Notes under the pieces: generated by a model
Told to the model about the DNA's origin: nothing
Seen by the model: the letters and a program-made list of their open reading frames with translations, nothing else
Databases searched by the model: none
Shown: piece after piece, positions 23,638 to 47,421 of the stretch
Layout of the letters: every line of letters begins with the position of its first letter
Position numbering within the stretch: position 1 is the stretch's first letter
Translations under genes and position numbers: made by a program
Assembly (NCBI GenBank): GCA_019057815.1
Contig: JAHLWR010000001.1
Span: forward strand, 160,001-224,000
Source: Candidatus Heimdallarchaeota archaeon
GTDB lineage: Archaea; Asgardarchaeota; Heimdallarchaeia; Heimdallarchaeales; Heimdallarchaeaceae
Direction of reading: 5' to 3'
Length of the DNA stretch: 64,000 bases

Positions 23638-23964
23638 TTACCACTCATAACTGTAAATTTTAGTTTTTTTTTCTCTTTTTTGAAATTTCTGAGATTCTAA
23701 TATTGTCGTTATTTCGATTATTTTGTATGCTATTTGTTCACCAATTGAAGTTAAATATATATACCTGCTTCCGCGTATTATCTTCTGCTCGCTTTTAATC
23801 AGTTCTAAATCCTCTAAAACGTTAATAGCTGAATAGACTGATTTCTGACCACCAATAACGGAATTAATTAATGTTGAGATATTCGCCTTTCCTCCCAATT
23901 CTAGCAATGTTTCTAATACTTGCAAAGCTGATTTTTGCTCCAAACCCATTAAATACCTTGACAT
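23638..23964 (-). CDS. winged helix-turn-helix transcriptional regulator
   Basis: ANISTLI...QKSVYSAINVLEDLELI...RYIYLTSIGE, a typical wHTH; divergent from the parA operon. Confidence 0.82.
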   Translation of the reverse strand: MSRYLMGLEQKSALQVLETLLELGGKANISTLINSVIGGQKSVYSAINVLEDLELIKSEQKIIRGSRYIYLTSIGEQIAYKIIEITTILESQKFQKREKKTKIYSYEW

Positions 23965-24141
23965 AATTAATTTTTTAAGGAGATATAGTATATATTTTTT
24001 TCGACAGTTAGAGTGTTGAAGCTATTAACAACAGATGCTATTTAATATAATGAAGAATAAGTTTAAACAGCTAATTAATACTTAAAGCAGTACGGTTGCG
24101 GGTAATGTTTTTATATTCGTTCAAATAAAGTAATATGGGTA

Positions 24142-24221
24142 CATGAAAAAAGATCTGAAGAAAATAAATCAGTGATTTTTTCATGCTTTTTGACATGAAG
24201 TTTAGTGTCTAGGAGTCATAA
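24142..24221 (+). promoter_or_regulatory. structured leader/operator region of the parA-giant gene operon
   Basis: CATGAAAAAA...TTTTTTCATG inverted repeat (24142-24185) about 25 nt after a TTTTTATA box; TGACAT-N8-GTGTCT (24191-24210); AGGAG at 24211. Confidence 0.45.
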
Positions 24222-45943: not shown

Positions 45944-45963
45944 GCTTTTCTATCTTCACCCTT

Positions 45964-47421
45964 TTATCTTTTTTTCTTTTTTTCTAAAAAATGTTCCACT
46001 TCTAGTAGAGCATGTTTGTATGGTTTTAGTAACAAGTGTTTATTTTCATCACTAATTTTAGAGATTCTGATAATTTCATCTAAAATTTTTTCTGATGACC
46101 AACCGCAAAGTTTGAAATAATAGATTATTACAACAAAAGGTGTTTGAAATTTTTCATGTTTAATGAACAAGTCTAAGTCAATAGAAAATAACGATTCACA
46201 AACACTGACGATTGAACCAAGTATATGTTTATCTTCTGGTAAAACGACACCTAATAACTTGTTGATACTGTTACATAAGGCCAAAATAGTATTAACCATT
46301 GTATAGTACAATCTACTTCCATACGTTCTCAATAATTCTTGGTTGCTTTTGCGATCTCTATGAAAGATAAGAGTTCTGTTGATGTCGTCAAATAAATCGT
46401 TTAATATCTCAAAAACGCGTGAATCTAAATATTGTCTCTTATTATTTAGTGTACGAATAATTATAATTAAAGGTTTAGATGCTTCTACAAAAGCCTCCCT
46501 AAGAAAAAGGGAACTGAAAAAACTGACTAAATCATTTATAATATACAAAGACAACTCTTTTCTGTCAAAGTCGAGAGTTTTCTGAGAGAAAAGTTTTTCA
46601 AGATATTCTTGCCTATGGGCAAACCGTTGAAATTTCGGTTTTTCCTCACCACCAAGATCATCGACATGGCAACACATGGTAAATATCGATATTAGTTGTT
46701 TATAGATTGTAGTTTTTGAGTCTTCGTCGACCATGGACATTAAAGTTTGCTCAAAAAAAGATATTGTTAGATTGAACATTTTTTTAAATTCATCATACAA
46801 AGATTGGGTAATAAGTGGTGTATAGTTAGTGAGTAATTTATTGTTTACTATCCAATGGTGTTCTATAATTGCAATGGTTAAATAAGCATAAGAGTAACAC
46901 ATGATGAAAGACTTACTCATACAATTCTCAAATTTATTATTGAACATTCCGACTTTTTCAGTAAAATCCTCAGTACCTGGTATTATTCCAAACCATTCAA
47001 GTAACAAAGGTGGGCTTTCTTGCGAAAATAATAGTTCTACAGTAGGGTATGCATAAAGTTGTGTTTTTAAAATTTCTTCTATCAAAGGAAAAAAACTCGA
47101 TTTTTCAGGTATTTCACAGTATTGAGACATATATTGGATAAACTTTTCTGTTTTTTTGTTCCAAAACTTGCCTAAATCATGATCTGTTCCTTTTTGCTTA
47201 TCTAACTCTGTTCCGCAGACATAACATTTATCGTCCTCTTCTTTAACCTCATTTTTACACTTTTCACAGTATAGTTCTCTGTTAGGTAAAGGTAATATTA
47301 TTACTCCACAATGGATGCAAAATGTTTCTACTACCCTTGTTGATTTGTTACAATTCACACATCTTGTCATTATATAATTGTGTTTTTTATCCTCTTGTAC
47401 CATCTTTAAGTCCCCATACAA
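45964..47421 (-). CDS. double zinc-ribbon plus helical domain protein (candidate immunity/regulator)
   Basis: CVNC..CIHC..CEKC..CYVC at the N-terminus, helical remainder; converges on the giant gene with a 20-nt gap. Confidence 0.7.
   Translation of the reverse strand: MYGDLKMVQEDKKHNYIMTRCVNCNKSTRVVETFCIHCGVIILPLPNRELYCEKCKNEVKEEDDKCYVCGTELDKQKGTDHDLGKFWNKKTEKFIQYMSQYCEIPEKSSFFPLIEEILKTQLYAYPTVELLFSQESPPLLLEWFGIIPGTEDFTEKVGMFNNKFENCMSKSFIMCYSYAYLTIAIIEHHWIVNNKLLTNYTPLITQSLYDEFKKMFNLTISFFEQTLMSMVDEDSKTTIYKQLISIFTMCCHVDDLGGEEKPKFQRFAHRQEYLEKLFSQKTLDFDRKELSLYIINDLVSFFSSLFLREAFVEASKPLIIIIRTLNNKRQYLDSRVFEILNDLFDDINRTLIFHRDRKSNQELLRTYGSRLYYTMVNTILALCNSINKLLGVVLPEDKHILGSIVSVCESLFSIDLDLFIKHEKFQTPFVVIIYYFKLCGWSSEKILDEIIRISKISDENKHLLLKPYKHALLEVEHFLEKKKKR

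Follow-up and report, generated by a model that had tools for sequence, protein, structure and literature searches.

A probable reduced aloposon-derived cassette in a heimdallarchaeal genome: two giant genes, a possible exported effector module and a linked zinc-ribbon gene

The giant proteins of aloposons are the largest proteins of their archaeal family, the Heimdallarchaeaceae, and the Heimdall group has been discussed as close kin of the eukaryotes. The locus described here lies in a 64,000-nucleotide (nt) stretch of DNA from Candidatus Heimdallarchaeota archaeon (GenBank assembly GCA_019057815.1, contig JAHLWR010000001.1, positions 160,001 to 224,000), hereafter the window, which is C38:160001-224000 of the host genome G000 (3.74 Mb, 48 contigs, 95% complete). 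It comprises a winged helix-turn-helix (wHTH) gene, a ParA/MinD-type ATPase gene, a gene of 249 amino acids (aa), two giant genes of 2071 and 4628 aa (giants 1 and 2) and a convergent gene for a 485-aa zinc-ribbon protein (zn485). The locus is very probably a reduced aloposon-derived cassette, in which a conserved upstream part, or head, was fused by old recombination or deletion to a divergent, coupled pair of giants and the subtilase gene was lost. More tentatively, it may belong to the polymorphic-toxin type and serve to display or deliver effectors at the cell surface. Three features give access to these giants, namely a plan of stalk, hydrophobic module and exchangeable end, a tenfold and orientation-specific avoidance of glycosylation sequons, and the pairing of an end module with a zinc-ribbon protein. 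They yield a testable effector-plus-partner hypothesis and bear on the interaction of Asgard cells with their neighbours.

Aloposons were described by Wu et al. 2022 (PMC8813620) as tandem genes of 3000-6000 aa with a downstream tRNA integration site and four consecutive upstream genes including MinD/ParA. Their giants, named Otus and Ephialtes, are found in Ca. Heimdallarchaeum endolithica and aukensis, with circular genomes of 3.32 and 3.08 Mbp (PMC8813620). A later paper remarks on partition proteins in aloposons (PMC11529989), and in the literature searched (PMC8813620, 2022, onward) no function is assigned to the giants. Two single-contig genomes from a sister genus of the same family, G007 (3,326,783 bp) and G004 (3,081,793 bp), are presumably the Heimdallarchaeum genomes of Wu et al. 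One locus of the former (G007a) has the order wHTH, ParA-like, subtilase, 3170 aa and 6099 aa, and a second (G007b) the order ParA-like, subtilase, 4475 aa and 5326 aa, followed after 6 kb by a tRNA. Across hundreds of residues the window giants are 22-23% identical to those of G007: giant 1 matches the 3170-aa giant of G007a at 22% (E 5e-9), and aa 24-863 of giant 2 match the 5326-aa giant at 23% (E 1.4e-14). Additionally, a signature patch of ~80 aa in giant 2 is present in every second giant, in open reading frames (ORFs) of 5237-6211 aa from five genera, including G004 and G007. Homology of the giants together with gene order thus supports the comparison with aloposons that an earlier sequence-only reading of the window had drawn. 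Both giants have homologues elsewhere, a protein fragment at NCBI labelled Candidatus Heimdallarchaeota is 54% identical to a window giant, and ORFs of 4628 and 2071 codons in DNA of 33% GC cannot arise by chance.

The locus is counted among at least four paralogous twin-giant cassettes of the host genome, which contains further tandem giants on contigs C39 (3224 and 6010 aa), C16 (3157 and 5978 aa), C7 (1551, 2566 and 5235 aa) and C1 (2068 and 2648 aa). ParA and a small gene of 183 or 202 aa accompany the giants of C7 and C39; next to the C16 giants no ParA was detected, and the C1 pair, which has no ParA, wHTH or 249-aa relative alongside, is left out of the ParA cassettes. Over most of their length, the C16, C39 and C7 giants are 29-44% identical to those of G007. 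The head of the window locus spans a beta-helix/NosD gene, a CarboxypepD_reg gene, the wHTH and ParA genes and ~170 codons at the start of the 249-aa gene. Window positions 18201-25600 are 90.6% identical in DNA to C7:57066-49682, and positions 24257-25634 are 82% identical to C39:81184-79804. This similarity stops abruptly inside the 249-aa gene, and past the head the window giants share only patches of 23-35% identity with the giants of C7, C39 and C16. In C7, C39, C16 and G007, the ~900-aa genes 3' of the small gene encode membrane-anchored Peptidase_S8 subtilases, and the window locus, unlike these cassettes, has none. Owing to the missing subtilase and the break inside the 249-aa gene, the conserved head appears to have been joined to a different cargo with loss of the subtilase. 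As neither the tRNA nor the set of four upstream genes is present, the locus is called aloposon-derived and not an aloposon. Decayed relatives occur as well. In the same-genus genome G001 (contig C8), the last ~80 aa of window giant 2 survive next to an orthologue of the 485-aa gene. A decayed cassette at G000:C24:57216-62102 contains a 494-aa ORF that matches the final 490 aa of the C7 giant at 63% identity. This ORF is directly adjoined by a paralogue, half as long, of the 691-aa CarboxypepD_reg gene and by one of the 629-aa beta-helix gene.

Among the head proteins, the 296-aa one is assigned with confidence, from its family matches and P-loop, as a ParA/MinD P-loop ATPase. Its Pfam matches are AAA_31 (5e-26; 92 bits against a cut-off of 27), CbiA (8e-13), ParA (4e-11) and also MipZ, and its deviant Walker A motif KGGPGKT, which follows the pattern KGGxxK[ST], is unchanged in 7 relatives. 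Paralogues in the host genome are 91% (C7), 81% (C39) and 59% identical, and among public genome contigs the nearest matches that a scan returned are ParAs of bacteria, at only 27-36% identity. The 249-aa protein has no Pfam, NCBIfam or PADLOC match. Its aa 1-177 are 67-69% identical to the C39 and C7 paralogues (the 183/202-aa genes), so that the N-terminal ~170 aa are common to the paralogous cassettes and the C-terminal ~70 aa are unique to the window locus; outside the host genome, relatives were found in the same genus only. The wHTH protein gives weak Pfam matches only (E2F_TDP 0.003, TrmB 0.085). Copies 97% and 42% identical to it lie beside the C7 and C16 cassettes, respectively, and a 40% identical relative of the C16 copy adjoins the G007a cassette. 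Window 24142-24185, ~40 nt before the start of ParA, contains an inverted repeat of 17 nt with 10 nt between its arms, which might be an operator bound by the divergent wHTH protein.

The head may possibly be the partition and regulation module of a mobile element, with the giants as mere cargo and an immobilised remnant left in the window. This explanation, which is open to real doubt, would be compatible with any reading of the giants. It agrees with the definition of aloposons as tRNA-integrated elements with upstream MinD/ParA (PMC8813620) and with the partition proteins remarked upon in them (PMC11529989). It is also consistent with the tRNA-His 1.8 kb downstream of the C39 giant, the tRNA past the G007b giant, the DNA identity of 82-91% between the heads of different cassettes, and the remnants on C24 and G001:C8. 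However, no tRNA was detected in the window or on the whole 304-kb contig (ARAGORN run on the contig), and Pfam revealed no integrase or transposase in the 25 larger flanking ORFs scanned here and beside the C7, C16 and C39 cassettes; the sequence-only reading had already remarked that the window has neither tRNA nor integrase. Around the ParA promoter region there is no iteron- or centromere-like array, only AT-rich chance repeats and the one 17-nt palindrome. Moreover, ParA, the 249-aa gene and the giants are tightly coupled in translation, which suggests that they work as a single unit. The sequence, read directly, has an ATGA overlap of the giant 1 stop and giant 2 start at 32057-32060 and a 4-nt gap between the 249-aa and 2071-aa genes; 20 nt separate the stop of the 4628-aa gene from that of the convergent 485-aa gene. 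All six ORFs were found at the coordinates given earlier, and the overlaps, the gap and the divergent and convergent genes are likewise as first described.

Neither giant matches a Pfam or NCBIfam family above cut-off. Giant 1 begins with a signal, after which a repeat of ~95 aa occurs 16 times (aa 31-2020; iterated hidden Markov model), and ends in a transmembrane (TM) segment at aa 2045-2064 and a basic tail. Its repeat profile finds weak immunoglobulin (Ig)-like/FN3 matches in PDB (best E 1.8e-4), in keeping with its first description as an Ig-repeat anchor protein, and at its N-terminus it shares homology with the first giants of C7, C16, C39 and G007a. Giant 2 starts with a Lys-rich n-region and a hydrophobic segment at aa 15-36 (hydropathy scan), a signal-like N-terminus that is followed by an acidic, aromatic-rich stalk of ~3250 aa, a Pro-rich linker, a hydrophobic module and an end of ~900 aa. 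The succession of signal, long stalk, acidic Pro linker and hydrophobic region had been predicted, and sequence and hydropathy confirm it. The hydrophobic module has segments at aa 3297-3323 and 3453-3471, a hairpin at aa 3554-3611 and Lys/Arg-rich flanks (aa 3476-3561 and 3605-3720). Common to all second giants are the N-terminal ~180 aa and the signature patch. Compared with a partial orthologue in genome G017, identity is 40-68% in the stalk, highest in the hydrophobic module (61-65%) and 20-36% in the C-terminal module (C-module); the acidic linker is the least conserved stretch (24-32%). A free-standing metagenomic protein of 1174 aa (P0018) has the hydrophobic and end modules only, without a stalk.

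The end modules are strongly depleted in N-glycosylation sequons. In ten C-modules, which represent at least four unrelated sequence types from three genera, 10 N-x-S/T sequons were observed where 100 would be expected. The reversed tripeptide S/T-x-N, in contrast, occurs 91 times for an expected 100. Past its last sequon at aa 2991, giant 2 has 0 sequons against 11.0 expected and 8 reverse tripeptides. The ratio of observed to expected sequons is 0.91 in the stalks and 0.71 in soluble homologues of the C-module; in the host genome it is 0.97 for cytoplasmic-like ORFs and 1.37 for signal-bearing ORFs. As avoidance of glycosylation sites is sensible only where a polypeptide meets the oligosaccharyltransferase outside the membrane, we infer from these counts that the cell exports the end modules and keeps them bare of glycans. 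Past the signal, each of four giants of the host genome has an even number of hydrophobic segments (4, 2, 2 and 0, the last in C7), and P0018, with one N-terminal TM segment and the hairpin, is consistent with an N-in, C-out topology. Only one other long ORF of the host genome is so strongly depleted: the 1011-aa protein of G000:C18:33035-36070 (L161) bears a signal, is anchored at its C-terminus and contains 0 sequons against 10 expected. No report of sequon avoidance, or of a linkage between module and partner gene, was found in the literature searched.

Relatives of the C-module occur in 14 of the 24 genomes of the family and in 0 of 16 genomes from the rest of the order. Only 11 matches were returned from 1.84 billion representative proteins, and word-index protein searches gave almost nothing beyond the query. 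Most relatives are free-standing proteins of 905-945 aa without signal or TM segment, and in at least five genomes they sit between the genes for the beta and alpha subunits of fumarase. For instance, G000:C22:20924-23761 encodes a soluble 945-aa homologue between fumarase beta (PF05683) and alpha (PF05681) genes, an odd conserved insertion also present in four or more further genomes of the family. Among the giants, the end differs between paralogues. Two paralogues in G001 align to about aa 3650-3780 and then continue into unrelated ends of ~1050-1200 aa, and the giants of C7 and C39/C16 carry yet other ends; none of the alternative end modules has a Pfam domain. Of the conserved N-terminus and variable C-terminus proposed as a check, a difference of ends past the hydrophobic module is seen among paralogues, and no swap is seen between close orthologues.

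When 19 sequences are aligned over the ~280 aa at the start of the C-module, G-F-D is near-invariant and most members have hhhExK 15-20 residues on. PD-(D/E)xK nucleases likewise have an acidic residue at a strand end, here that of GFD, and hhhExK 15-20 residues later, and the D...ExK motif suggests, at the level of sequence, a nuclease of this type. The top structural and language-model leads for the C-module (HamA of Hachiman, SfsA, MspI, VRR-NUC and Mrr) are all weak. AlphaFold2 (AF2) models of the module reach a predicted local distance difference test (pLDDT) score of 66 (64 for the domain only), with the motif region poorly modelled. Structure search with the domain-only model gave helical-hairpin matches only, the domain profile gave chance-level matches only against PDB sequences, and Pfam scans of each alignment member revealed no recurrent family. 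Of the nuclease motifs seen by the sequence-only reading, D...ExK is thus conserved across the module family, but no nuclease fold was confirmed by Foldseek, profiles or AF2. A second warhead of AHH/HNH type, also proposed there, was rejected: it is not conserved in the module family, the consensus of which retains only HQxWxxP near aa 4293. Nor is the end a compact tip, the C-module being about 715-1000 aa long. A 554-aa protein with a GFD...K-type domain is encoded at G007:C1:2196937-2198601, ~9 kb beyond an aloposon-type giant and past a tRNA.

The 485-aa protein contains two N-terminal zinc ribbons (DZR 4e-6) and a ~400-aa helical domain, and has no signal and no TM segment. Apart from the zinc ribbons, searches of Pfam, NCBIfam and PADLOC yielded only two PADLOC rows below threshold, and the protein atlas returned nothing. 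Relatives in the family measure 330-470 aa, and the host genome has no paralogue. A zn485-like gene adjoins a C-module gene in five contexts, which upholds the proposed link of the downstream zinc-ribbon gene to the giant: convergently in the window, G001:C8 and G011:C155, and co-directionally in G022:C101 (55-nt gap) and the metagenome contig L067 (95-nt gap), where its identity was confirmed by hhalign (99.7%, E 5e-27). The G017 contig extends only 528 nt beyond its giant, and nothing zn485-like is found in this remainder. A predicted complex of half the C-module with the 485-aa protein scored 0.07, which has no bearing either way. The downstream gene may vary with the type of end module. 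A gene of ~290-313 aa follows each of the giants with other end types, namely that of C7 and the two paralogues in G001 (L015:2650-3522, L038:10556-11431 and L039:6486-7427). The gene after the C7 giant has LRR domains by Pfam; its two G001 counterparts are weakly alike, and one of them resembles the C7 gene.

On the tentatively favoured interpretation, that of an effector system at the cell surface, both giants would be exported. Giant 1 would form a membrane-anchored stalk of 16 Ig-like repeats, and giant 2 would display its ~3250-aa stalk, the conserved hydrophobic-hairpin module and an interchangeable C-terminal effector module. This effector module would be free of N-glycosylation sites and, in the present locus, a candidate nuclease of the PD-(D/E)xK type. 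The cytoplasmic zinc-ribbon/helical protein might be its dedicated partner, which keeps the module inactive or export-competent in the producer in the manner of an immunity protein or chaperone, and every effector type would have a cytoplasmic partner of its own. Delivery to another cell, nuclease activity, protection by the partner, a part for ParA and export of the C-module would all belong to such a system, and each is put forward here as a supposition. A stronger version, in which aloposon-type cassettes would be mobile weapon islands and the second giant a Sec-exported, contact-dependent effector, is doubtful. The hairpin module would then insert into the membrane of a neighbour and carry in the glycan-free, exchangeable module, in this locus a nuclease of PD-(D/E)xK type, to which the zinc-ribbon protein would be the matching immunity factor. 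Modular order, partner linkage and sequon-based export speak for the weapon resembling contact-dependent inhibition (CDI) that was first proposed for this locus; the absence of a detectable toxin domain and a partner that is 485 aa long and convergent speak against it.

Several observations weigh against the effector interpretation. The soluble homologues retain the GFD...ExK motif and have no partner gene adjacent, which argues that the fold of the C-module is not intrinsically toxic. Neither Pfam, NCBIfam, PADLOC nor PDB sequences place a known toxin or nuclease family in the C-module, Foldseek found nothing in PDB at E<=0.001 for the 749-aa model, and every fold lead, although all agree in direction, lies below the trust threshold of its own tool. 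The large size of the module weakens the notion of a toxin further. Swapping of ends is seen only between deep paralogues, which are about 30% identical throughout, and the sole orthologue (G017) retains a homologous end. In G017, G010 and G014 the zn485-like gene lies away from module genes, and the partner in the window, by its length and convergent orientation, is unlike typical immunity genes. Moreover, the role of ParA is left unexplained. As an ordinary anchored surface protein (C18:33035-36070) is sequon-free too, sequon avoidance would indicate export and not toxicity. Finally, under the positive-inside rule the Lys/Arg-rich segments around the hairpin suit a C-terminus in the cytoplasm, in conflict with the sequon signal.

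The giants may instead be surface adhesins or envelope fibres or coats without any delivery, used for attachment to partners or minerals. The C-module would then be a membrane-proximal extracellular domain, structural or enzymatic, in which glycans are not tolerated, and the zinc-ribbon protein a regulator or assembly factor. The Ig-like repeats and C-terminal anchor of giant 1, the many beta-helix/NosD and CarboxypepD_reg surface proteins in the neighbourhood, the lack of a detected toxin domain and the sequon-free but unrelated surface protein on C18 all suit such a fibre, as does the anchored subtilase of the paralogous cassettes, which would be expected for surface-protein maturation. Nevertheless, this explanation seems rather unlikely, as it does not account for a cytoplasmic-protein gene beside the module type in five contexts, for tenfold sequon avoidance in all C-modules and not in the stalks, or for the exchange of unrelated C-modules behind one conserved hydrophobic module. 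That the ~1000-aa C-module of a transmembrane protein is cytoplasmic, as an intracellular enzyme or docking platform (an externally controlled nuclease-like effector, or a site for ParA and the 249-aa protein), would suit the strongly basic hairpin flanks, the soluble cytoplasmic homologues and the cytoplasmic nature of the partner, ParA and the 249-aa protein, but is improbable given a sequon ratio of ~0.1 in membrane-linked modules against 0.97 in cytoplasmic ORFs and 0.71 in soluble homologues, an even or zero (C7) number of hydrophobic segments that places the end on the stalk side, and a ParA and 249-aa N-terminus that are near identical between cassettes with unrelated C-modules. It had been the leading view, on the strength of the positive-inside rule and the soluble homologues, and was dropped from that place after the sequon analysis and kept as a rival. 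The effector interpretation, which accounts for more of the observations than any other, is retained in the tentative form given above.

Table 1. Features of the aloposon-derived locus, in window coordinates.
Feature	Position	Strand	Basis or remark
Conserved head block, 7.4 kb	18201..25600	.	DNA identity to C7 and C39 cassettes
wHTH-like gene	23638-23964	-	108 aa; Pfam weak
ParA/MinD-type ATPase gene	24226-25116	+	296 aa; Pfam
249-aa gene	25091-25840	+	no family match
Giant 1 gene	25845-32060	+	2071 aa
Giant 2 gene	32057-45943	+	4628 aa
Sequon-free stretch, aa 2992-4628	41030..45940	+	composition
Acidic Pro-rich linker, aa ~3140-3200	41474..41656	+	sequence read directly
Hydrophobic/amphipathic module, aa ~3290-3720	41924..43216	+	hydropathy
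Second-giant signature patch, aa 3428-3508	42338..42580	+	homology
C-terminal module, aa ~3914-4628	43796..45940	+	relatives in this archaeal family only
GFD (D4003)...E4020-x-K4022 motif, candidate PD-(D/E)xK core	44054..44122	+	19-sequence alignment
Convergent Zn-ribbon gene (485 aa; zn485)	45964-47421	-	Pfam DZR

The neighbourhood of the locus is rich in beta-helix/NosD and CarboxypepD_reg surface proteins, as identified by Pfam, and no Rfam family matches in the window. A run of genes for NosD/right-handed beta-helix surface proteins occupies window 11018-20766, and dozens of paralogues of this family, at 65-85% DNA identity, are spread over most contigs of the host genome. Downstream, window 50418-51449 encodes an Rce1-like CAAX protease with a C-terminal zinc ribbon, which has paralogues on C23 (84%) and C24 (78%). 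Adjacent segments of 373 and 203 bp at window 51547-52113 match C38:151327-152339, a region of this contig some 60 kb upstream and beyond the window, at 95% and 92% identity. One of the segments is inverted, and they may represent a small repeat or mobile element.

Bacterial polymorphic toxin and CDI systems include CdiA/CdiI, Rhs and MafB, and archaeal polymorphic toxins have been predicted computationally. The window locus differs from them in several respects. No recognised toxin, pre-toxin or immunity family is found here, and the end module measures about 715-1500 aa against 100-300 aa. The partner is a protein of 330-485 aa, encoded convergently in the window, in place of a small immunity gene downstream in the same direction. 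Swapping is confined to old paralogues, the locus has no two-partner or other dedicated secretion gene, and the cassettes also include ParA and, in the paralogues, an anchored subtilase. The likeness consists in an N-terminal export signal on giant 2, a very long repeat- or beta-rich stalk, and a conserved region behind which the C-terminal modules vary, here from one deep paralogue to another. Shared as well are the linkage to a gene whose product is cytoplasmic and a 3'-end remnant that is kept beside the partner gene in a relative (G001:C8).

Compared with the aloposons of Wu et al., the window locus is without a downstream tRNA and without any sign of integration or mobility. Two co-oriented genes (ParA and the 249-aa gene) lie upstream in place of four, and the anchored subtilase is missing. 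Giant 1, at 2071 aa, falls under the range of 3000-6000 aa, whereas giant 2, at 4628 aa, falls within it. The giants are only 22-23% identical, over parts of their length, to those of the Heimdallarchaeum genus, and a C-module and zinc-ribbon partner of the present type were not seen in the other cassettes examined. Nevertheless, the locus comes from the same archaeal family, has an upstream ATPase of MinD/ParA type and carries two giant genes that lie in tandem, overlap and follow the same order, with giants homologous to those of the presumed Heimdallarchaeum genomes G004 and G007. Aloposon cassettes as such are known from published work, and what is new is a variant without subtilase and tRNA that has a distinct end module and partner gene.

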